Shown: in pieces, positions 1,293-48,345 of the stretch
Numbering within the stretch: position 1 is the stretch's first letter
How the letters are laid out: each line of letters begins with the position of its first letter
NCBI GenBank assembly: GCA_963844965.1
Contig: CAWJQC010000001.1
Span: 1 to 48,809 of the forward strand
Source of the DNA: an uncultured bacterium
GTDB lineage: Bacteria > Patescibacteriota > Minisyncoccia > UBA6257 > 2-01-FULL-56-20
Direction: 5' to 3'
Length of the DNA: 48,809 nucleotides
The notes under the pieces: model-generated
Database searches by the model: none
Told to the model about the DNA's origin: nothing
The model's input: only the letters and a program-made list of their open reading frames with translations
Translations under genes and position numbers: made by a program

Positions 1293-3623
1293 ATGTCCTC
1301 AAAGTCATTGCTTAGAATTATAAAAATTCTTATTTTCGTCGTTGTAATTGGAACGCCGTTTTTTTATGTAAAACAAACCGTTTTCCCCTTCACCATCTCC
1401 AAGATGGCTTTTTTTCAGTCGCTTGTGGAGTTTATATTTTTCCTTTGGCTTGCGCTCGTCCTCCCAAGTTTTGTCGGCAAAAATTTGGGAGGACGAGCGA
1501 TTTCCGACAAAAAATATCGCCCGCGCCGGACGCCGGCCCTTCTGGGTCTCGCGGCGTTTCTTGCCGTTTTGGTTTTCACGGCGGCTCTAGGCCTCGACCC
1601 TTGGCGCAGTTTCTGGTCAACATATGAGCGGACGTTCGGAGTTGTTACTTTTTTGCATTTAGGGGCACTGGCCCTTGTTCTTTCCGCGATTTGGTCGGAA
1701 ATTCCCTGGAAGAAACTTGCTTATTCTTCGATTGTGACCTGCGCGATCGTTGACATCATCGCCGCCTTGCAATTATGGAAGCCGGCCTTATTGCTCAATG
1801 AGGGTGCGATTAACAGAGCCGGCTCCACGTTTGATAATCCGTCGTTTCTGGCCGGTTACGTTTTGTTCCATGTTTTCCTTTGTCTCTATGTTCTATTTAC
1901 TTTGAAGAGAGGAGAGGATCTCCGAGCCGGTGGGCAGCGCTCGTCCAAGAATCTTTGGATAGGCATTGTTCTTTTTGTTATTCTCGTATTGAACGTCGTC
2001 ACCATTTTTATAACGCAGACGCGCGCAGCCATTTTGGCTTTGGTTGCCGGCTTTTTTGTTCTATTTTTGTTCTTTGCCTTTCGGCCGCCAGATAACGAAT
2101 GGCTGCCGGGTTTTTTGAAAAAAAAGTGGTTCTACGCCGCCGTCATCGCGGTCATCGTTTTGGGCGGCGCACTGTTTTGGTTCACGCGCGACAGCGCGGT
2201 TTGGGCGCAAGTTCCCGGACTCGGGAGATTCCGCAATATTTCCCTCACCGGCGGCGACACTTTGCCCAGAGTCATCGCCCTTAGCGCGGCTTGGCGCGGA
2301 TTTTTGGACAAGCCGTTCCTGGGTTGGGGATGGGAGAATTTCAATATTGTGTTCAATAAGTATTACGACCCGCGGTCTTTGGAGTTCAACTATGAAGAAA
2401 CGAGATTTGATAAGCCGCACAATTTTTTCATGGAATATTTGGTTGCCGGAGGCGTTCTCCTCGCGCTCGGATTTTTGGTTATGCTCGGCATTTTGATATA
2501 CGAGGCGCGGCGGCACAAAGAAAAACTTTTTTACCCGCTATTTTTGGCGGCGATTGTCGCCTACTTGGTCCAGAACCTGTTCCTTTTTGACACGCTCGGT
2601 CCGGCACTCATGTTTTTCGCGCTTTTCGGATACATGGACGGTTATTATGCCAAAAGCAGCGAGGAAAGGCCGGAAAAGGAAGCGCAAACACGGATACCGA
2701 CAAAGGTCAGCGGGCTTATGCTTGCGGTGTGCGCGCTTGTCGCTCTGGTTTTTGCGTATCAGTTTAATTTCCTGACCGTTGAGGCGTCTTATTATGAGTG
2801 GCGTGCTTTTAATGATTTTTTCGGAGGGAAACAGCAGAATGCCATAGAGGATTTCAAGACCACTTTGAGTATTTGGAGTCCGTATAGATGGAATTTCGGC
2901 AGGGATTTCGCCGCGAACGTTATAATGGCTTATTTTTACAATCAAGGCGCGGTGTCCGACAACGAGGCGCTTCTCGCTTTGAGCGCTATGGAAGAAGCGC
3001 GGGATGAGCATCCTCTTGATGCTTATAATCACTATGCGCTCGTTGACATGTACAATGAGGTTTCGGACATTGACATCGCAAAATACACGGCTTTAGCGGA
3101 GAAAGAAGCGGCAACGGCGCTCGCTTTGAGCCCGAACCGGCAGGAAGTTTATTTTTCTCTCGCGAAGACGAAACATATCGAGGGCGACGACAAGGCGGCA
3201 CTTGAACTCGCGAAGCGCGCCTTGGATTTGGACCCGAAGGTTCCCGACGCCCATTTCTACTACGGCGTGCTTCTGTTCTCGACTGGAGATCAAGCCGATG
3301 GCTATGCGGAAGTGAAGGAAGCGATCTCTTTGGGAAGAGAGTGGAAAAACTTTTACGAACCGAGAACGATTGCCGGATTTTTCGGCGATTTTGACCCTCC
3401 GAAACATTTGGATGAGGCTATAGACCTTTATAAAACGGCGCTTTCCATGCAACCTGACGATTTGGAAACGCAGATAAAACTCGGAGTTGCCTATTATTTC
3501 AAAAATGACTTTACCGACGCGCGCGATTACTTGAGTAAGGCGGCGACAAGATTCAACTTCAGAAGCAGTCCCGAGTTCGCCGAATTCAAGCCGATTCTGA
3601 ACCAGTTGGGAATAAATTATTAA
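1293..3623 (+). CDS. polytopic membrane protein, O-antigen ligase (Wzy_C)-like N-terminal domain plus C-terminal TPR repeats
   Basis: About 10 predicted TM helices, TQTRAAILALVAG ligase-like motif, C-terminal TPR-like helices (AYNHYALVDMYNE..., ALDLDPKVPDAHFYYGVLL...). Confidence 0.65.
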   Translation: MSSKSLLRIIKILIFVVVIGTPFFYVKQTVFPFTISKMAFFQSLVEFIFFLWLALVLPSFVGKNLGGRAISDKKYRPRRTPALLGLAAFLAVLVFTAALGLDPWRSFWSTYERTFGVVTFLHLGALALVLSAIWSEIPWKKLAYSSIVTCAIVDIIAALQLWKPALLLNEGAINRAGSTFDNPSFLAGYVLFHVFLCLYVLFTLKRGEDLRAGGQRSSKNLWIGIVLFVILVLNVVTIFITQTRAAILALVAGFFVLFLFFAFRPPDNEWLPGFLKKKWFYAAVIAVIVLGGALFWFTRDSAVWAQVPGLGRFRNISLTGGDTLPRVIALSAAWRGFLDKPFLGWGWENFNIVFNKYYDPRSLEFNYEETRFDKPHNFFMEYLVAGGVLLALGFLVMLGILIYEARRHKEKLFYPLFLAAIVAYLVQNLFLFDTLGPALMFFALFGYMDGYYAKSSEERPEKEAQTRIPTKVSGLMLAVCALVALVFAYQFNFLTVEASYYEWRAFNDFFGGKQQNAIEDFKTTLSIWSPYRWNFGRDFAANVIMAYFYNQGAVSDNEALLALSAMEEARDEHPLDAYNHYALVDMYNEVSDIDIAKYTALAEKEAATALALSPNRQEVYFSLAKTKHIEGDDKAALELAKRALDLDPKVPDAHFYYGVLLFSTGDQADGYAEVKEAISLGREWKNFYEPRTIAGFFGDFDPPKHLDEAIDLYKTALSMQPDDLETQIKLGVAYYFKNDFTDARDYLSKAATRFNFRSSPEFAEFKPILNQLGINY

Positions 3624-3781
3624 TCGATTAGCCGGCGGCTGATTGGGTGGTTTCGCCGGAGATTCCCGATTTTGCTATAATAAACATACTTGAAACCAAC
3701 AAAGGTCGACGCGACATAAAGCAAAGCGCGAAGCGCGAACGGCGGATCGATCCGCTTCACGATTTGCTGTAAGCAATTATT

Positions 3782-4151: not shown

Positions 4152-4427
4152 TAGAACCCATCTCAAAAATACTTTCAGGTCGCGTTGCGAGAGATTTTCT
4201 CGTATTCGCAAGGCTTGGCGAGGGAGCTGTGCTTGATGCACTGCGACCGAGCCGTAACGCAGCGGGACGAGAAAATCTCCGCAACCCTTCGGGATGCGGT
4301 AAATCGTGCGCAGCACCGTGTCGCTTCGGACTCGGAGTACCGCAGAGGGTACACCTTCGTCCTTACTCCTTGTTCTGCGCACGATTTGCCAGTATCGCGA
4401 CCGAAGGTATTTTCGAGATGGGTTCTA
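4152..4427. other. 276-nt non-coding element bounded by a 21-bp inverted repeat (TAGAACCCATCTCaAAAATAC / GTATTTTCGAGATGGGTTCTA), in a convergent intergenic region; candidate structured ncRNA or MITE
   Basis: Inverted repeat read directly (20/21 match); internal hairpins (cgagagattttctcg, gagaaaatctc); no convincing ORF. Confidence 0.3.
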
Positions 4428-8924: not shown

Positions 8925-9040
8925 TATCCAGAATCTAGAAATTAGAAAGTAGAGAATAGAATAAAGAAAACCAAGATTGAATTAGTTGACTTTCACCTTC
9001 TACTTTCTAGATTCCATTTTCTATTTTCTTGCTCTTTTCG
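8925..9040. repeat. AT-rich palindromic intergenic element (TAGAAAGTAGA / TCTACTTTCTA; AAATAGAAAATAGAA / TTCTATTTTC family)
   Basis: ctagaaattagaaagtagag ... ccttctactttctagattccattttctattttc; related copy at 28441-28560. Confidence 0.45.
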
Positions 9041-16789: not shown

Positions 16790-17260
16790 TTAGAAACCGA
16801 TGAGTTCCTCCAGTGTTTCCAGGAGGGAACGTTCGTGCTTTACCTGCGGGAGGATAGTTTGCAGTATTTTCTGGATTTCCGCCGTTCGCTCCTTTGGCAT
16901 TTTGATCTTGAGCGGAGTTTTGAGGCGCGCCCTGAATTGGAAATAAGTATTTGGCCAATCGGTTTGGAGATATTCGTCCACGCTGAAACTTTCCATTTCG
17001 CTCCAGGCGTAAAACTTATGGCCGCCGATATCAAACCCCCTTTCATTTATGGTGAATTCAACGAGCGGCGGTTCGCGATTTGCCCAGACGAGCACGAGAA
17101 TTTCCGCGACGACTATCAGGAATCCGAAAAGGAAATTTTTTTGCCAGACGGAAATCCCAACGATTACGGCCGCAATGATGATGGAAATCCAGTACCAGGA
17201 AACGCCTTTCGGCCGGTATTCAAATTCCGGCGCGCGCCATTTCAGTTCAAATGGATTCAT
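16790..17260 (-). CDS. hypothetical membrane protein (two TM helices)
   Basis: 156 aa, WYWISIIIAAVIVGISVW and FLFGFLIVVAEILVLVW hydrophobic helices. Confidence 0.5.
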   Translation of the reverse strand: MNPFELKWRAPEFEYRPKGVSWYWISIIIAAVIVGISVWQKNFLFGFLIVVAEILVLVWANREPPLVEFTINERGFDIGGHKFYAWSEMESFSVDEYLQTDWPNTYFQFRARLKTPLKIKMPKERTAEIQKILQTILPQVKHERSLLETLEELIGF

Positions 17261-17349: not shown

Positions 17350-18039
17350 CTATGCCCTTGCGACAGCGAGGGCGATAATTTTCTTCGCGTCGGCGGATTT
17401 CAGGGCCAGCGCGGCTTCCAAAAATGTTGCACCCGATGTCGTGACGTCATCTATCAAGATTATTTTTTTGCCGCGGAACAGTTCCGGGTTTTTGATGCCG
17501 AAGCAATTCTTGACGTTTTCACTGCGTTCGCTCAGGTTTTTCGTTTCGCTTTGCGCCTTAGTGTTCTTCGTGCGCAGGAAATTTTTTGTTTCTAATAGGA
17601 GTCCGAAATGCGCAGCGAAAATTTCTGCGATCAGCTCCGACTGGTTGAAGCCTCTCTCGCGCGAGCGCCTGCCGGAGAGGGGGATTGGCATTACGAGATA
17701 TTCCGCGATAGGAATCCGCAGATTTTCCGCGTAGCGGACGAGAAGCCGCGCGAGCGGTTCGGCAGCAGATTTTACATATTTGAATTTCAGAAGGTGGACG
17801 AGATTTTTCACTATCTCGTCGGTATAATCGGTCGCCGCGCCGAGCGCGTAAGGAAAATCCAGATGGCACATTCTTTTTCCTTCGGCAAGACGCGCGCTGC
17901 ACTTACCGCAAAAGAGGGTGTTATTGACGTTTATTTTTGTGAGGCACTCTCCGCAGATTGCCGCACCGCTTCCCATCGTTTTTCCGCAGCCGAGACAGTT
18001 AGACGGAAAAATTAAGTCAATTAGTTTATCCAAGAACAT
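17350..18039 (-). CDS. comF: ComF family protein (ComFC; double zinc-ribbon plus phosphoribosyltransferase domain)
   Basis: N-terminal CxxC...CxxC...CxxC, C-terminal KKIILIDDVTTSGATF PRTase motif. Confidence 0.8.
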   Translation of the reverse strand: MFLDKLIDLIFPSNCLGCGKTMGSGAAICGECLTKINVNNTLFCGKCSARLAEGKRMCHLDFPYALGAATDYTDEIVKNLVHLLKFKYVKSAAEPLARLLVRYAENLRIPIAEYLVMPIPLSGRRSRERGFNQSELIAEIFAAHFGLLLETKNFLRTKNTKAQSETKNLSERSENVKNCFGIKNPELFRGKKIILIDDVTTSGATFLEAALALKSADAKKIIALAVARA

Positions 18040-18252
18040 ATCTGGTTGCTACATTGTTGCACTAAAAAGCGCGGAAAATCAAGCCCGGTAGTGGTTCTGC
18101 GATTGTAATTCGGATTGTATAGTTATCGCTGCACGAGTTCTCCTTGTTTGCTATTTTGTCGTAACAGGCAATGAAAAATCGTTCCGAATTGCGGTGGGTA
18201 TTGTCGCAGAACTACTACCAGGCAAGCCGTGTTATAATTCAAATGAAATGTG

Positions 18253-18376
18253 TCCCGTTAGAGACCGCTTCGCTACGGGAACGCCTCAATTACATAAACC
18301 ATGCCTTATTTGTTAAAAATAATAATGACAGATAACGATTCGTCTAACCGGCGAAGCGTTCCCTGTCTCTAACGGG
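18253..18376 (+). promoter_or_regulatory. structured 5' leader of the pil operon: long imperfect inverted repeat whose 3' arm contains the pilM start codon
   Basis: GTCCCGTTAGAGACcgcttcgctacgggaacgcc ... ggcgaagcgttccctGTCTCTAACGGGAT-GG (14-bp perfect core plus flanking complementarity); ATG at 18377. Confidence 0.3.
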
Positions 18377-19480
18377 ATGGACACCGCGAACATCTTCAAA
18401 ACCTTCAAATTTTTCAAACAGAGCGTTTTTCCCTCGTATCTCGGTGTTGATATCGGCACGACCTCCATAAAGGTTGTGGAGGTGAAGCCGGGCAAGCAAC
18501 TGCCGGAAGTTGTGAATTACGGATTTCTTGACTCAGGCGGCCAGCTCTCGCGCGCGAACCAAGCGTTGCAGACGAGCACGCTTAAACTTTTTGAGAAAGA
18601 AGCGGCAGAACTTCTGAAGTTGTTGGTTGGAGAAATGAAGACCAAAAGTACGGATGCCTTCGCGTCGCTGCCGACCTTTTCGGTTTTTATGACCGTTCTC
18701 GATTTCCCGGAAATGAAAGCCGGCGAGATAGAAAGGTCCATGGTGTTTCAGGCGAAACAATATATCCCCTCGCCGATCTCGGAAGTTGCGCTTGATTGGA
18801 TGAAGGTCGGTGAATATAAGGACGACAAGGGATTCACGCACCAGCAAATACTTTTGATATCCGTGCCGCAGGAAAGTATCAAGAAGTATCAGACGATCTT
18901 CAGGCTTGCCGGATTGAACTTGAAGGCGCTTGAGATTGAAAGTTTGAGCCTTACGAGAATTTTTGGAGGGACCGATCTCTCGCCGGCCATTGTGGCGGAT
19001 ATCGGCAGCCGCTCCACGAACATTATTTTTCTTGACAAAGGGCAGTTGAAATTCAACAAGCAGAGCGATTTTGCCGGAGCGTCGCTCACTCAGGCCCTCT
19101 CGGAGAGTTTGGGTATAAATTCGCTTCGCGCGGAAGAGCTGAAGAAGGAACGGGGGGTCGCGGGGACCGGTCCAAACTACGAGTTATCCACAATAATGAT
19201 GCCCCTTTTGGATGCTATAATTAACGAGATAAAGAAGGCGCGCTACAGTTACGGGGAACAGTTTCCTGGAGCGGCGAAGGCCGAAAGGTTGATCATTTCC
19301 GGCGGCAGCGCCAACCTCATTGGTGTTGAGAAATATTTTGAAAGAGAGTTTGGCCTGCCGGTTATAAAGGCAAATCCGTTCGCGAAGTTTGAGTATCCGC
19401 CGGCAATTGATTCAATGGTACCGGAACTCAATCCGATAATGAGCGTAGCGCTGGGACTGACGCTAAGAGAATTCATTTGA
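18377..19480 (+). CDS. pilM: type IV pilus assembly protein PilM (actin-like ATPase fold)
   Basis: 367 aa, YLGVDIGTTSIKVVEV and DIGSRSTNIIFLDKG motifs. Confidence 0.85.
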   Translation: MDTANIFKTFKFFKQSVFPSYLGVDIGTTSIKVVEVKPGKQLPEVVNYGFLDSGGQLSRANQALQTSTLKLFEKEAAELLKLLVGEMKTKSTDAFASLPTFSVFMTVLDFPEMKAGEIERSMVFQAKQYIPSPISEVALDWMKVGEYKDDKGFTHQQILLISVPQESIKKYQTIFRLAGLNLKALEIESLSLTRIFGGTDLSPAIVADIGSRSTNIIFLDKGQLKFNKQSDFAGASLTQALSESLGINSLRAEELKKERGVAGTGPNYELSTIMMPLLDAIINEIKKARYSYGEQFPGAAKAERLIISGGSANLIGVEKYFEREFGLPVIKANPFAKFEYPPAIDSMVPELNPIMSVALGLTLREFI

Positions 19481-19578
19481 AATTTCTAATTACCAATTTC
19501 TAATTTCTAAATAAATCCCAAATTACAATTTCCAAATTGTTTAGAAATTAGGTATTAGAAATTGGAAATTTAAAGTAC
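19481..19578. repeat. AT-rich intergenic palindromic element (AATTTCTAATT...CCAATTTCTAAATAAAT...TTGTTTAGAAATTAGGTATTAGAAATTGGAAATTT)
   Basis: Homologous to the element at 20841-20968. Confidence 0.5.
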
Positions 19579-20198: not shown

Positions 20199-20840
20199 AT
20201 GAAGCAGACTACAAAAAGATTCTTAAGTATGATTTTGGGTCTGGTATTTCTCCTGTCCTCTTTACTTATGTATCTTGAGCTGATTCAGCCTGCCTACAGC
20301 AACGCTCAACAAACGAAAGCGCAGAAAAACAGCCTGCAGGTTTTTTTCGACAGCGAGGAAAAAGTCGTTGAACAGGTTGAGAAGCTGGCAAGTTCTTACG
20401 AAGGGGAAGGTGAGGTGCAGCAGGCGGTTTCCGAAGTTCTTCCGACGAGGATGGACATCGCCGGGGCGATAGCCCAACTCTACGGTCTTGCGCAAAACAA
20501 CAACTTGGCGGTGAAGTCTCTCGACCTGTCCACGGCGCCAGCCCCGCTTAAGAAAAATACGAACGCTAACCCGGGAACCACCCAGCTTTCGGGCTTTGAA
20601 ACTTCTTTGCAGAAAGGTGTCGGCACCGTATCTTTTGAATTACAATTGAGTGGGAGCTACGAAGACCTGAAAAATTTCCTGTCCGCCATTGAGACCAATG
20701 TCAGGATTTTTGACGTTGGACAGATCGAGGTCCAGCCCGTACCGGTCACCGTAGGTGTGGGCAAGGCCGGCAGCGCGAACGTGCCGCAAGACCTGTTTGA
20801 CTATAATTTTTCCCTGAAGACCTATTACCAAAGCCAATAA
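20199..20840 (+). CDS. pilO: PilO-like pilus assembly protein
   Basis: 213 aa, N-terminal TM and coiled-coil region; position in pilMNO order. Confidence 0.5.
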   Translation: MKQTTKRFLSMILGLVFLLSSLLMYLELIQPAYSNAQQTKAQKNSLQVFFDSEEKVVEQVEKLASSYEGEGEVQQAVSEVLPTRMDIAGAIAQLYGLAQNNNLAVKSLDLSTAPAPLKKNTNANPGTTQLSGFETSLQKGVGTVSFELQLSGSYEDLKNFLSAIETNVRIFDVGQIEVQPVPVTVGVGKAGSANVPQDLFDYNFSLKTYYQSQ

Positions 20841-20968
20841 TAATGAAAATTTCTAATTTCTAATATCCAATTTCTAAATAAATTTTAATATCCCAAATCA
20901 CAAAATTTATAATTTTAGCCATTAAGATTTTGATATTGTTTAGAAATTAGGATTTAGAAATTGGAAAT
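20841..20968. repeat. second copy of the AT-rich intergenic palindromic element
   Basis: aatttctaatttctaatatccaatttctaaataaat...ttgtttagaaattaggatttagaaattggaaattt. Confidence 0.5.
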
Positions 20969-21268
20969 TTGATAACCATGGCCATAGTCATTGAGGAGGA
21001 AAAAAACAGAATCAGTCCAATCAGCATCGCCACTTGGCTTGTGGTGCTTATCATTATCGGCCTCGCCGCTTACTATATCTTTTTCACACAGCCGGAGCTT
21101 ATTGAAGTTGCGGCCCCGTCCAATTTCCAGAACATTGACCCATTGTCAAAAATTAATCTTAATCCCGAAGATGTGGTAAACGGTTCGGGTTTCCAGTCCC
21201 TGAAGCCCACAATAACGTTGCCGGTGCCCGGCAACGCCGGAAGGGACAACCCGTTTCTGGCGCGATAA
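20969..21268 (+). CDS. small single-TM protein inside the pil operon (possible PilP-like)
   Basis: 99 aa, TM WLVVLIIIGLAAYYIFF; no recognisable family. Confidence 0.4.
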   Translation: MITMAIVIEEEKNRISPISIATWLVVLIIIGLAAYYIFFTQPELIEVAAPSNFQNIDPLSKINLNPEDVVNGSGFQSLKPTITLPVPGNAGRDNPFLAR

Positions 21269-21337
21269 GTATTGCGAAGTGCAAGGCGCGAATCGCGAAT
21301 CGGCTTGCGCCCAGCAGTCAATAATTTACACACTCAA

Positions 21338-28560: not shown

Positions 28561-28639
28561 TGGCCGAGCACAAGGGGCAGACCCCGTATGACAACTGCGG
28601 TAGCGGCAACTCAATGCCGCAAGGAAATTAAGAAGTAAT

Positions 28640-29230
28640 ATGTTTATGCGGCATATTTTTCGCACAGTAGCAGATTTCTTGCGTTGCCGTAGGCATTGCA
28701 ACCGCAGTTGCTCTACGGGGCAGATTATAATTGAGGCCATAGTCGCTTTATCGGCTCTGACCATCTGCTTCGTGGGGATTTTTGGGCTTATTTCAACTTC
28801 GCTCCACTACAACCGTTTCATTGCCAACGACTACACGGGCACCTACCTCGCGGCCGAGGGAATAGAGGTGGTCAAGAACCTTTTGGATTCCAATGTCATA
28901 TCCGGACGCGAGTGGGGCTGCGGATTTATGAACGGCTCTTATGAGTTGACTTATGATACGCAGTTCAAAAGTACGGTTTGTTCGCAATCCGTACTTGATC
29001 CCAATCAATCTAGAAGTTTATACATGGATTCAGGTAGCCACTTATACAACTACAATGTCGCCGCGGCCGGCACCGCTTTTACGCGCGTCGTGACGATCGA
29101 GGTTCTCGAAAGTGACTCGAACGGGAATCCTCAGGAAATGCAGGTCAATTCCGTTGTTTCCTGGAATCAGGGGGCGGGCAAGCAAAGCGTCAATTTGGAA
29201 GACAGATTTTTCAATTGGCACGCGCAGTAA
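28640..29230 (+). CDS. pilin-like protein (..STG|QIIIEAIVALSALTICFVGIFGLIS), Cys-containing C-terminal domain
   Basis: Gly followed by hydrophobic helix with Glu at +5; four Cys in the globular part. Confidence 0.5.
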   Translation: MFMRHIFRTVADFLRCRRHCNRSCSTGQIIIEAIVALSALTICFVGIFGLISTSLHYNRFIANDYTGTYLAAEGIEVVKNLLDSNVISGREWGCGFMNGSYELTYDTQFKSTVCSQSVLDPNQSRSLYMDSGSHLYNYNVAAAGTAFTRVVTIEVLESDSNGNPQEMQVNSVVSWNQGAGKQSVNLEDRFFNWHAQ

Positions 29231-32385: not shown

Positions 32386-32609
32386 TCCCGAACGGGATGC
32401 TAATCGTGGCGGTTGATGACTATCTGGCCGGTGTCACAAGGTTTGGCTCCGTTAATCCCACGACCGGAGTTATGACACAACTCACGGCGACGACCCCGAA
32501 ATTGACGGTAGGATTAGCGGTAAGTCCGCTTGACGGCCGTATCATCGGCTGCGAGCGCGACGCCTGCGACTTCATGCTGGAGCAGTGATGTTGAGATGCG
32601 ATTTTTCGC

Positions 32610-32642
32610 GGCCCCGGGTGCGCTTACCGGGGCCTTTTATAT
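32610..32642 (+). terminator. rho-independent terminator (GGCCCCGGG..CCGGGGCC followed by TTTTATATTTTTAT)
   Basis: Read directly. Confidence 0.55.
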
Positions 32643-32655
32643 TTTTATCATACCG

Positions 32656-33020
32656 TTTTGCCCGGTAGTAGACCGAGTGCAGCAACGCCCCGTCACCAAA
32701 CAAGCACCTCGTTTTTCCCAGCGACTTTGCATATACCGTGCTTTTCGTTCCCAGTATATGACTTGTAGATACCGACGTTTATCCAAGAAAAACGGTCGGT
32801 CGCTGCAGTACTTGTTTGGTGCGGGGCAACGCATGTACGCTTTCCCGCCACAAACGATTACCTTTGGTAAATTGATGGTTTTGAGTGACAGTTTTCCCAA
32901 AATCAGGCGTTGTGGAAAGCGTAGCGCTTGGCTCACTACCGGGTTTGCCCGGTAGTGAAATTGCGAGTGGTCGCCGAAGGCGACGTAAACAAAATGCTCG
33001 CAATTCTACTACCGGGTTTG
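32656..33020. repeat. nested inverted-repeat element: GTTTTGCCCGGTAGTAGAC (32656) ... CTACCGGGTTTGCCCGGTAG (32936, palindromic) ... TCTACTACCGGGTTTG (33005); highly hairpin-rich interior; MITE-like or structured RNA
   Basis: Three copies of the ACCGGGTTTG / CAAACCCGGT core read directly; internal long imperfect IR 32691-32716 / 32808-32832. Confidence 0.45.
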
Positions 33021-33035: not shown

Positions 33036-33518
33036 ATGGCGAAGCTTTCAAAGTCAACGGGAGTTTTCGCGCTCGTGATACTGCTTTTGGCCGCGGTCAT
33101 TGCCGTCATCGTTTTCGTCGCGCTTCGCGGGAAGGCGCCAGCTCCCGCCGCTATGCCCGTAGGGAAACCCACTGCGCAGCCTTTGCCTGCATACGCGCCG
33201 CCGGGCGAGCTCACACCCGGTTTTCCCAAAGAACTGATTCTCGGCGGCGAGGCGACGTCCAGCGGAAGTTATGCGATAAATTACGGCAGCGGCCCGAGTT
33301 TGCGCACAGCATCGTTCGGTTCGGCGAAGTCAATGCTTTCGCTTTTCAATCTCTACAAAACGTACTTCAGGAGCAACGGCTGGACCGTGGTCAACGAAAT
33401 TACCAAATACCAGAATTCGCGCGGTCTTTATGCAGTGAAAAGCGGCGCCGTTTCCAGCGTTTCTATTATTGATAACGGAAAAACGCGCGAGGTCGTCGTG
33501 AGCTATTCGGGGAAATGA
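33036..33518 (+). CDS. secreted/anchored hypothetical protein
   Basis: Signal anchor VFALVILLLAAVIAVIVFVAL; 160 aa. Confidence 0.5.
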   Translation: MAKLSKSTGVFALVILLLAAVIAVIVFVALRGKAPAPAAMPVGKPTAQPLPAYAPPGELTPGFPKELILGGEATSSGSYAINYGSGPSLRTASFGSAKSMLSLFNLYKTYFRSNGWTVVNEITKYQNSRGLYAVKSGAVSSVSIIDNGKTREVVVSYSGK

Positions 33519-39430: not shown

Positions 39431-39486
39431 TATTGGAATTTAAATTTAGAATAAAGGACAGTAGAATTTGGGACTTGTGATTTGCA

Positions 39487-39522
39487 AAGAACTGCGCACA
39501 CAGGGCGCGCGGTTCTTTCTTC
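39487..39522 (+). terminator. terminator hairpin after the giant gene (GAACTGCGC..GCGCGGTTC followed by TTTCTTC)
   Basis: Read directly; one mismatch in stem. Confidence 0.4.
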
Positions 39523-39528
39523 TAAATT

Positions 39529-44830: not shown

Positions 44831-44874
44831 CCCCGCACCAAATTTATAAAATTATGAGATTTCGAGCGGTTCGC

Positions 44875-44949
44875 GCGGCCGTGGTGTAGCCTGGTTAACA
44901 CGTCCCCCTGTCACGGGGAATATCACGGGTTCAAATCCCGTCGGCCGCG
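44875..44949 (+). tRNA. tRNA-Asp (anticodon GUC); flanking sequence extends the acceptor helix to about 17 bp (AGCGGTTCGCGCGGCCG / CGGCCGCGCGAACCGCT)
   Basis: GCGGCCG-TG-GTGT-AGCCTGGTTA-ACAC-G-TCCCC-CTGTCAC-GGGGA-ATAT-CACGG-GTTCAAAT-CCGTG-CGGCCGC-G. Confidence 0.85.
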
Positions 44950-45024
44950 CGAACCGCTGGAACGCCTTCGTTTCAAATATTCGATTTCAGCAATAGCACT
45001 AAATGTAAAAATTTGGTGCGGGTT

Positions 45025-45062
45025 ACGGGGAAGGTTGTGGGTTCAAATCCCATCGCCCGCGC
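45025..45062 (+). other. degenerate tRNA-Asp 3'-half fragment (TACGGGGAAGGTTGTGGGTTCAAATCCCATCGCCCGCGC)
   Basis: About 80% identical to the 3' half of the intact tRNA-Asp. Confidence 0.4.
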
Positions 45063-45089
45063 AAAGACAAAGACAAGGTGGGGGATAAA

Positions 45090-45122
45090 GGGAAGATCAC
45101 GGGTTCAAATCCCGTCGGCCGC
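45090..45122 (+). other. exact 29-nt copy of the tRNA-Asp 3' end (ATCACGGGTTCAAATCCCGTCGGCCGCGC), candidate att-site remnant; an inverted 14-nt copy (GACGGGATTTGAAC) lies at 45179-45192
   Basis: Direct repeat of tRNA positions about 47-75, read directly. Confidence 0.5.
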
Positions 45123-45129
45123 GCTAAAA

Positions 45130-45164
45130 CCAAAAGACGATGACCTTGTGCCATCGTCTTTTGG
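45130..45164. other. perfect 13-bp stem-loop (CCAAAAGACGATG-accttgtgc-CATCGTCTTTTGG)
   Basis: Read directly; possible terminator of the tRNA cluster transcript. Confidence 0.4.
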
Positions 45165-45348
45165 TTCCTAATGTAGTCGACGGGATTTGAACGGGGATGG
45201 GGTCGGTCAGACCGCAGTCAGAGGGTATCGCGGACGCGGTCAAGGAATCGCGGTTTTCGTTGCCGTTGCTGTATGCTATACTGTAATTAATAGTTCCAAC
45301 TCTTGCGCTTCTCTTGTTCTTGGTGTATGCTCGAAAAACATGAAAATG

Positions 45349-47422: not shown

Positions 47423-47596
47423 GTCAACCCCCACCTTTTCGGGAAAAAGACGGGGGTCAACCCCCGCCTTTTCGGAAAAAGACGGGGGTCAACCCCCGCC
47501 TTTTCGGAAAAAGATGGGGGTCAACCCCCGCCTTTTCGGAAAAAGATGGGGGATTGACCCGCCTTTTCGCGCATCGCGCAAAAGGCGGGGGTTGAC
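47423..47596. repeat. tandem array of about 4.5 copies of a 31-32-bp unit (GTCAACCCCCGCCTTTTCGGAAAAAGACGGGG), each a pair of small hairpins; terminal variant with CGCGCATCGCGC loop; no spacers
   Basis: Read directly; ORFs 47291..47609 are translations of the repeat. Confidence 0.75.
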
Positions 47597-47655
47597 CGGG
47601 TTCGGTTAATTTTATATGATATCAATATAAAATTTATAAACTTAACTAAAGTCAT

Positions 47656-48236: not shown

Positions 48237-48271
48237 TTGGGCGCGAACGCTAATCCGACCGACACGAAATC

Positions 48272-48345
48272 GACCCCCACCTTTTCGGAAAAAGGTGGGG
48301 GTGAACCCCCACCTTTTCGCGCATCGCCCAAAAGGTGGGGGTTGT
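48272..48345. repeat. two further palindromes of the GGGGG/CCCCC family (CCCCCACCTTTTCGGAAAAAGGTGGGGG and CCCCCACCTTTTCGCGCATCGCCCAAAAGGTGGGGG)
   Basis: Read directly, immediately 3' of the second hicA. Confidence 0.7.

Follow-up and report, generated by a model that had tools for sequence, protein, structure and literature searches.

The hairpin over the pilM start codon of a Patescibacteria contig is probably one copy of a widespread MITE-like element found at start codons

The Correia elements of Neisseria, the ERIC/RU-1 repeats of enterobacteria and the RUP and BOX elements of pneumococcus are bacterial MITEs (miniature inverted-repeat transposable elements) that are co-transcribed and fold within the mRNA. 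Coupling of translation by the unmasking of a structured start site is exemplified by the coat and replicase genes of MS2. General reviews on bacterial MITEs are available (PMC3184786, PMC2759123), the Rickettsia palindromic elements (RPE) are mentioned in PMC2635572, and the termination-reinitiation geometry at ATGA and at very short stop/start spacings has been described (PMC6728339, PMC10666635). Here we analyze a stretch of 48,809 nt from an uncultured member of the Patescibacteriota (GenBank assembly GCA_963844965.1, contig CAWJQC010000001.1, positions 1 to 48,809 of the forward strand), referred to as the window, in which a long hairpin overlies the start codon of the pilus gene pilM. 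We conclude that this hairpin is probably made up of the terminal inverted repeats, together with an internal stem, of a single MITE-like element. The element is palindromic and non-coding, has a size of just 111-140 nt, and is widespread in Parcubacteria (Patescibacteria).

The pilM gene (18377-19480, plus strand, as are all features of the element described below) is the first gene of its cluster and encodes a protein of 367 aa (Pfam PilM_2, E = 1.3e-33), of which homology search finds an identical version in the protein collection, although an exact look-up gave no match. Around its start codon, a repeat finder returned TCCCGTTAGAGAC (18253-18265) and GTCTCTAACGGGA (18365-18377), two 13-nt arms that are 100% complementary and have 99 nt between them, with a possible extra G-U pair of G18252 with T18378 beyond the arms. 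The final base of the 3' arm, A18377, is at the same time the A of the pilM ATG. The arm 13-mer has no further occurrence in the window, except for one chance match with 2 mismatches. Folding of the RNA from 18240 to 18400 yields -49.4 kcal/mol compared to -30.6 +/- 3.7 for 200 dinucleotide shuffles (z = -5.13), none of which was as stable. The initial annotation had described a hairpin at this site that buries the start codon along with the position of a ribosome binding site, and in both respects it was right: modelling of a transcript from 18246 gives P(unpaired) <= 0.06 for the 12 nt 5' of the pilM AUG and for its A, and P(unpaired) >= 0.97 for the three nucleotides at the 5' end, AAA, up to the A of an upstream AUG. 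Its suggestion that extra complementarity extends the helix to about 30 bp holds for the complementarity only, since this consists of two mutually exclusive 8-bp helices (18266-18273/18351-18358 or 18277-18284/18356-18363), and the stem with either of them amounts to ~21-22 bp with a bulge. The element interior (18266-18364) further has an AT-rich middle, a small hairpin in the fold (18339-18344 with 18350-18355), and a bulged T at 18364, following the 3' strands of the inner helices and directly preceding the right arm.

So how did this structure come to lie in front of pilM? For comparison, 33 pilM loci were taken from Patescibacteria species-representative genomes (46-72% identity), and the contigs of the four closest proteins (83, 79, 77 and 77% PilM identity) were added. 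The hairpin is absent from every related pilM locus recovered, and the 31 loci with a readable upstream region have a short pilM leader, or none. Whereas a gap of 337 nt (18040-18376) separates pilM from the divergent comF-like gene in the window (17350-18039, minus strand; double zinc ribbon and phosphoribosyltransferase domain), the comF-pilM gap is smaller than 75 nt, usually ~40-60 nt, in 26 of the 30 loci of the first set in which it was measured. Among the four closest relatives this gap is 153, 355, ~258 and 55 nt, and the larger ones do not contain a start-codon element. The closest relatives carry TG(c/t)TATAAT followed after 7-9 nt by ATG, a leaderless or near-leaderless geometry. 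This layout is kept in the window, where TGTTATAAT at 18230-18238 (hexamer 18233-18238) is followed after 9 nt by the ATG at 18248-18250, the same TATAAT spacing as in loci L001, L037, L038 and L039. The predicted extended -10 promoter matches the TG(c/t)TATAAT of all five closest relatives, is the only promoter-like element conserved with them, and was found by this very comparison; a sigma-70 consensus scan, which is blind to extended -10 promoters, had returned a single match, on the minus strand within the loop (18346-18319). The old ATG is followed by ~126 extra nt and then by ATGGACACC, the aligned counterpart of ATGGACATC in the relative with 83% identity, and alignment with the five closest relatives leaves one clean gap of ~130 nt, exactly between TATAAT and ATGGAC. 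Judging from these alignments, the copy at 18253-18377 is a lineage-specific insertion between a leaderless-type promoter with the old ATG on one side, and the present pilM ATG on the other. The sequence at 18230-18238 would then be the ancestral pilM promoter, with a predicted transcription start near 18245-18247, ~6 nt before the 5' arm, and the hairpin would probably be located in the pilM leader.

The relative with 83% PilM identity, L034, has a pilM without the element, and instead carries a variant copy (3538-3657, arms TCCCGTTAGAAAT/ATTTCTAACGGGA, flanked by ATGAA on the left and TGAA on the right) on the start codon of its pilO-like gene. The product read from the junction ATG begins with MKQTTKRFLSMILGL and matches the window protein at 20199, and the corresponding window site at the start of the pilO-like gene, ATGAAG, is empty. 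Gene callers sometimes put a start within the element: the recorded call for this L034 gene starts at 3621, inside the copy and 12 codons upstream of the junction ATG, and is 12 codons too long. Variant copies with the same flanks reside in the same pil operon of L035 (3551-3670) and L032 (4831-4948) as well. As read from these sequences, element positions differ between close relatives, and the window and L034 are reciprocal at pilM and the pilO-like gene.

Scanning of metagenome assemblies from groundwater, sediment, lake and soil with the pattern TCCCGTTAGAGAC-N(84-114)-GTCTCTAACGGGA returned at least 120 loci, and among the loci listed we count at least 126 copies of 111-140 nt besides the window's own. 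When 1 mismatch was allowed in the 10-nt arm core, the contigs fetched (~0.7 Mb) contained at least 167 arm pairs, single contigs having as many as four copies. A scan of viral contigs returned no copies of the element. An origin of the arms by local inverted duplication of pilM sequence was also considered, and is ruled out by the presence of identical arms at more than 120 unrelated loci. Variant copies retain TCCCGTTAGA/TCTAACGGGA, and their inner arm positions change compensatorily (GAT/ATC, AGC/GCT, CAT/ATG, GGC/GCC, AAA/TTT), which indicates that the pairing itself is selected. The family is without a conserved long open reading frame (ORF), having only short ones of 7-53 codons, and its interiors are poorly conserved in sequence. 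What is shared is an architecture: a left arm, an AT-rich stretch, YAC and a GC-rich hairpin abutting a bulged T, and a right arm. Among 127 copies, 74 have this 3' hairpin directly next to the right arm, formed by 40 different stems, compared to 12 at the mirror position and 7 at random positions in the controls. Other sub-families, including that of the window, have a long-range extension of the terminal stem in place of the local hairpin. Within the window's sub-family (n = 10 copies), the pair 18279/18361 covaries between G-C and A-U in 4/10, and the interiors of L093, L128, L068 and L060 closely resemble that of the window. Window-like interiors precede the genes for PilC, L18 (between rplF and rplR), ribulose-phosphate epimerase (Rpe), a type IV secretion system (T4SS) pilin, Pth2 and Fmt.

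These copies, together with the pilM comparison above, bear directly on the regulatory role that the initial annotation had assigned to the hairpin, namely that of a dedicated cis-regulatory RNA in the pilM leader (a thermosensor, a riboswitch for e.g. c-di-GMP, or a small RNA target) that gates the pil operon. It is true that the stable stem sequesters the AUG and the 12 nt before it, and that the inner helices, of which only one can form at a time, might in principle provide a switch. However, a scan of 17900-18700 against Rfam 15 with permissive filters gave 0 matches at E <= 10, and at the gathering score the whole window contains three tRNAs only. The annotation had itself proposed a comparison with orthologous pilM leaders, and had named a lack of conservation in relatives as refuting the idea; the helix is not conserved in any of the related loci recovered (46-83% PilM identity). 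Moreover, identical arms with a near-identical sub-family interior precede the genes for L18, Rpe, Pth2, Fmt, PilC and the T4SS pilin in other genomes, and the interiors across the family are not conserved, which leaves no ligand pocket. We consider a cis-regulatory RNA of this kind very improbable. The pilM hairpin is very probably not a ligand or temperature sensor, and a tempting but wrong annotation can thereby be removed, there being no evidence for a pilus riboswitch or thermometer at pilM.

The preferred reading, that of a MITE-like element, also draws on the positions at which the copies are found. Copies were oriented by their interior alone, from the CT just before the right arm. In 108 of the 114 oriented copies the element is followed by TG, so that its terminal A and this TG form an ATG, and the mirror arrangement is seen in the other 6. 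On the left flank, positions -5 to -3 are A in 96, T in 97 and G in 79 of these 114 copies, followed by R and R; on the right flank we find T in 113 and G in 108, followed by R and A. The resulting logo reads A-T-G-R-A, element, T-G-R-A, and in the flanks purines are abundant on the upstream side and A on the downstream side. The same 4 bp stand on both sides in 72/114 copies and match at 3/4 positions in 14 more, and they vary jointly on both sides (TGAA/TGAA, TGGA/TGGA, TGAG/TGAG). Such different repeats in different copies imply a true target duplication of an ATGRA site, and since the TGRA repeat is usually preceded by A on the left, it was an ATGRA start codon that served as target. Tandem copies with nothing but the repeat between them are present in L121, L122 and L143, as one would expect from a second insertion into the re-created site.

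The ATG at the junction opens an ORF of at least 60 aa, or one that runs off the contig, in 105/120 cases (median 165 aa). For seven out of ten ORFs read from the junction ATG, the protein collection has an entry with exactly the same sequence, the named hosts being Parcubacteria and Liptonbacteria. Pfam domains of the downstream genes include SSB (four times), L23 (twice), L4, RpoC, SecY, TsaD and peptide deformylase (Def), as well as signal peptidase, UvrD, RNase III and PilC; many of these element-preceded genes are essential in most bacteria. The copies share one orientation relative to the start codons of many unrelated genes. On L151 (3536-6779), there are copies with C...G rather than T...A at the outermost arm position (CCCCGTTAGAAAT ... 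ATTTCTAACGGGG), some of only 67-68 nt; these have the 4-bp repeats TCAA, TTGA and CCTG and no adjoining ATG. The outermost base pair may be linked with the choice of target.

Orientation and flanks also decide on two further explanations of the repeats. If the locus were an inverton, the repeats would be recombinase sites around a promoter and the pili would be phase-variable, for which one could point to inverted repeats ~100 bp apart upstream of a pilus operon, with the sole sigma-70-like match inside the loop on the minus strand (18346-18319). The orientation of the interior, however, is the same in 108/114 copies and in 10/10 copies of the sub-family, copies are found inside operons, e.g. 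between rplF and rplR, and the flanking 4-bp direct repeats and tandem copies are indicative of insertion, not inversion. Furthermore, the window ORFs tested gave no match to a recombinase domain, and no reads or contigs were seen with the locus in both orientations, leaving this explanation with next to no credit. The size and the hairpin formed by the whole element are, on the other hand, reminiscent of a REPIN or repetitive extragenic palindromic (REP) element moved by a RAYT (HUH) transposase, and the GTTAGAG and CTCTAAC within the arms resemble the core sites of integron attC, which bound cassettes; several contigs indeed have copies spaced by single ORFs. Neither HUH transposition nor attC recombination is known to make a true target duplication, as implied by the jointly varying 4-bp flanks. 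The polarity of the cores is reversed as well, being GTT...AAC and not AAC...GTT (attC = R''(RYYYAAC)...R'(GTTRRRY)), tandem copies occur without a cassette between them, and in conserved operons the elements directly precede housekeeping genes, at their 5' end, while attC is expected at the 3' side of a cassette ORF. A non-exhaustive search showed neither RAYT nor IntI. We regard a REPIN or attC-like origin as extremely improbable.

If the element is an insertion at start codons, how would the genes behind it still be translated? From the ancestral pilM ATG, an upstream ORF (uORF) MCPVRDRFATGTPQLHKPCLIC of 22 codons runs over 18248-18316 (stop TAA at 18314-18316) and spans the entire 5' arm. 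Across the family, these uORFs start with M-(N/D)-P-V-R-D and read through the left arm. The left, ancestral ATG would thereby retain its native context for initiation: a TATAAT-like box is located 3-10 nt upstream of roughly 20 of the 85 left ATGs, and some others have GGAG-like purine runs (by eye). Several genes of the window likewise have TATAAT, 6-9 nt and a start codon, e.g. those at 17260 (minus strand), 33036 and 39543, and canonical or GGAGG-like Shine-Dalgarno motifs are few in the window (by eye). This suggests that leaderless or Shine-Dalgarno-independent initiation is common in this organism, and a start codon without such a motif is therefore normal here.

The frame set by the left ATG is stop-free through the interior in 44/127 copies, compared to 13.2 +/- 3.4 for interior shuffles, 16 for the other sense frame, and 12-14 for the antisense frames. 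Open frames are limited to 2/39 copies where the old ATG is in frame with the host ORF, versus 42/88 where the frame ends at built-in stops, either a TGA that overlaps the ATG (ATGA) or a TAA that lies 7 nt ahead of it, within the right arm. With similarity clusters counted once, this difference is 2/27 versus 30/65 (Fisher p = 2.6e-4). Within the ATGA class, 14/24 are open with a TGA flank versus 0/8 with a TGG flank, which provides no stop. These frame statistics suggest translational coupling, in which ribosomes would read across the hairpin and pass on to the host ORF at the re-created ATG.

We propose the following sequence of events. The element would insert at an ATGRA start codon, with its terminal A and the duplicated TG re-creating the ATG. 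The whole element would then be transcribed from the old promoter as a 130-nt leader, of which the stem hides the pilM AUG. The old AUG, being 5'-terminal and exposed, would be used by ribosomes first, and translation of the short ORF carried by the element would melt the 5' arm, so that the real AUG becomes available for initiation or re-initiation. The ORF would, in about half of the family, reach a stop in the right repeat (TAA) or overlapping the ATG (ATGA), which is the geometry of termination-reinitiation, whereas the window copy would offer the unmasking version only, which is weaker than full coupling. With the 5' arm held single-stranded in the model of the window transcript, as it would be by a translating ribosome, 6 out of 9 positions before the pilM AUG are open (P 0.60-0.97), and the three nucleotides adjoining the AUG as well as its A are mostly still paired (P 0.02-0.40). 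It should be noted that the promoters and the leaderless starts are read from sequence. The net effect of the insertion on pilM is probably tolerated, with pilM expression possibly reduced or uORF-dependent. If the structure does lower or condition pilM translation, this would be a side effect of a mobile element, and not an evolved sensor of pilM.

Several observations weigh against the element as we describe it, some of them concerning the window copy in particular. This copy belongs to the in-frame class and is closed, as its uORF stops 60 nt before the pilM ATG; its sub-family never has a full-length uORF (0/8 open in its cluster), and because the uORF ends inside the element, the best-supported coupling geometry does not apply here. 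It also lacks a clean target duplication: the left repeat copy (18249-18252) is a decayed TGTG, where TGAA or TGGA is the family norm, and matches the right copy (TGGA, 18378-18381), the TG of which completes the re-created ATG, at only 2/4 positions. Just this one copy is seen in the 48.8-kb window, and a BLAST search with the element, run on the window together with 39 loci, gave no second one. For the family as a whole, the 13-nt arms were fixed by the search pattern, which makes their invariance uninformative. No autonomous copy was found, arm pairs that enclose a transposase-sized interior being absent from the ~0.7 Mb of fetched contigs among solo and paired arms; nor was there a transposase among the window ORFs tested, in a search that did not cover whole host genomes. 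Mobility is deduced from the distribution only. Finally, ~85% of the copies are on start codons and not on other TGRA sites, which a 4-bp target alone does not explain, and neither does it account for the fixed orientation. Either the enzyme recognizes a longer site resembling an initiation region, or only such insertions survive.

A further explanation is an element that spread selfishly and has since been co-opted, with the hairpin, the 3' stem-loop or the uORF now serving the host. Such a service might consist of an RNase III processing site that makes a new 5' end at the AUG, of a 5' stabilizer, or of a global translational throttle. The fixed orientation (108/114), the 3' hairpin conserved with covariation, the selection on uORF frame, and the copies on genes essential in most bacteria together show that the elements are under constraint at the level of RNA or translation. 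The same features are expected, however, if only harmless copies survive, and the differences in presence and absence between close relatives argue against a fixed host function. We deem co-option unlikely. The MITE-like element can also be placed in a wider and more tentative frame, to which we give somewhat less than even chances: an undescribed class of selfish DNA in the ultra-compact genomes of Parcubacteria that homes to ATGRA start codons, duplicates them while leaving the host ORF intact, and brings along a built-in translational bypass, where an ORF from the old ATG to the stops of the right repeat lets the hairpin be unfolded and translation re-initiate.

Were this wider proposal true, the element could occupy normally essential genes such as rpoC, secY, ssb and those for ribosomal proteins, a transposon would be safely sheltered at start codons, and recognition of translation-initiation regions by a transposase or by some targeting mechanism would be indicated. 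If the preferred model holds, it would show how selfish DNA persists in genomes of ~1 Mb with almost no intergenic space, it would imply an unknown transposase with a start-codon-like target, and it would provide a natural test system for leaderless initiation, uORF unmasking and termination-reinitiation in organisms that are unculturable.

The surroundings of pilM contain further palindromic sequences. The cluster runs in the order pilM, pilN-like, pilO-like, small ORF, pilB, pilT, pilC, with Pfam T2SSE, T2SSE and T2SSF assigned to the genes at 21272, 23108 and 24304, respectively. Just upstream of the pilM -10 box, and absent from the initial annotation, there is a second long hairpin (18083-18223), with arms GCCCGGTAGTGGTTCTGCGA/TCGCAGAACTACTACCAGGC of 20 nt that are 90% complementary and 101 nt apart; it can be extended to ~30 bp and lies between two CAAG repeats. 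The corresponding site of L034 is occupied by a hairpin of ~95 nt, likewise between CAAG repeats, the arms of which differ from those of the window yet are complementary to each other. Elements with CCAG(G)TAGTG ends occur at other sites in L037 and L038, the copy in the latter lying inside the TATAA of the -10 box with TATAA on both sides. By its appearance, the 18083-18223 type would be a second MITE-like family, one in which the 4-bp duplications are arbitrary. Membership of the start-codon element in one family with the neighboring hairpin A (CCCGGTAGTGG ends) was considered and rejected: the ends are similar, but the A-type has arbitrary 4-bp duplications and adjoins -10 boxes, not ATGs. 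Two more distant pilM loci also have a comF-pilM gap that is enlarged by unrelated insertions, L018 by one with a hairpin stem of ~25 bp (GCCCAAGGCAAAGTATCTCCTGTC..., ~1510-1860), and L025 by one with a direct duplication of TTTTTACTTTACTCCTCGTTGCCAAATGTA around extra sequence (~2745-2995). The comF-pilM intergenic region appears to be a recurrent landing site.

Elsewhere in the window, 45 long-range inverted-repeat pairs (arms of at least 12 matches, 30-350 nt apart) were found, versus 3-14 (mean ~6.5) in 20 block shuffles, and most of those inspected are intergenic. At 32661-33016, two tandem copies of a family with CCCGGTAGT ends (283 nt and 69 nt) are arranged as TTTG, first copy, TTTG, second copy, TTTG, and the gene at 33036 has its TTATAAT directly next to the third TTTG. 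Nested within the first copy is a palindromic element (32689-32826, CCCGTCACCAAAC ends) resembling a repeat around the tRNA-Asp at 44832, and the 141-aa ORF at 32530-32955 is probably spurious. Directly upstream of another TTATAAT lies a palindromic element at 28582-28720 (CCCCGTATGACAACTGCGGTAGC ... GCAACCGCAGTTGCTCTACGGGG) with CAGA on both sides; the ATG at 28640, listed as the start of an ORF, is inside this element, and the true gene start is probably downstream. The 276-nt element at 4152-4427 has 25-27-nt ends, TAGAACCCATCTCAAAAATAC, that recur at 95% identity in three other Patescibacteria loci, namely L003 and L008 (~2088-2251) and L037 (~1613), where the copy is nested in another element upstream of pilM. 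This element constitutes a third shared palindromic family. The tRNA-Asp itself (44875-44950) is located within nested inverted repeats, 44861-44881/44942-44962 (the acceptor stem plus ~14 bp) and 44832-44854/45000-45022; its 3' part GTTCAAATCCCGTCG recurs at 45041 and 45103, and inverted at 45176-45192 (region 44832-45192). These repeats may be integration scars or processing stems. The region 47423-47597 contains four tandem copies (96% identity) of a 32-nt unit, GTCAACCCCCGCCTTTTCGGAAAAAGACGGGG, after which the first 18 nt of the unit recur in inverted orientation (47580-47597), and the palindrome at 48271-48344 is related to it. AT-rich palindromes made of AATTTCTAA-type heptads are present in the gap between pilM and the pilN-like gene (19477-19574; 48-nt arms, 2-nt loop), after the pilO-like gene (20847-20970), and in intergenic regions at 8930-9022 and 39443-39528, with similar sequence upstream of the pilM of L017.

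How does the start-codon element relate to what has been described before? It is MITE-like in being small and non-coding with terminal inverted repeats (125 nt and 13-bp perfect arms for the window copy), in having a short direct target-site duplication within the family, in its number of copies at more than 120 dispersed loci with unrelated downstream genes, and in its differences in presence and absence at orthologous sites, a parent insertion sequence being the one MITE feature not found among the contigs and window ORFs covered. The Correia, ERIC, RUP and BOX elements are similarly ~100-170 bp in size, non-coding and bounded by terminal inverted repeats and short target duplications, with many dispersed copies; they too form long hairpins within transcripts and can alter the expression of neighboring genes. 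In contrast to the start-codon element, they insert at TA or at loosely defined intergenic sites, and are not known to be tied to start codons, to re-create an ATG or to have a fixed orientation relative to the downstream gene. REPINs share with it a hairpin of ~100-120 nt built from two inverted ends, conserved ends, covarying stems and a high copy number, yet these are extragenic, are not known to make a target duplication or to have any link to start codons, and have a RAYT gene. RPE are, like our element, selfish palindromic repeats that survive in or at genes, with an insertion compatible with gene function. However, RPE insert in frame and are translated within the host protein, while the start-codon element avoids in-frame read-through (2/39 copies), and since the ATG is duplicated, the host protein remains unchanged. 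As in termination-reinitiation and in MS2, an upstream ORF ends at or a few nucleotides from the downstream AUG, or melts a masking helix; here, though, this ORF and its stops would be supplied by a mobile element instead of a neighboring gene, as the frame statistics suggest. In the searchable literature on the arm sequences, on MITEs or repeats of the candidate phyla radiation (CPR) and Patescibacteria, and on MITEs with coupling or start codons, no description of this family was found. What is new with respect to that literature is the association with start codons, the regeneration of the ATG, the fixed orientation, and the frame statistics that point to a built-in coupling device.

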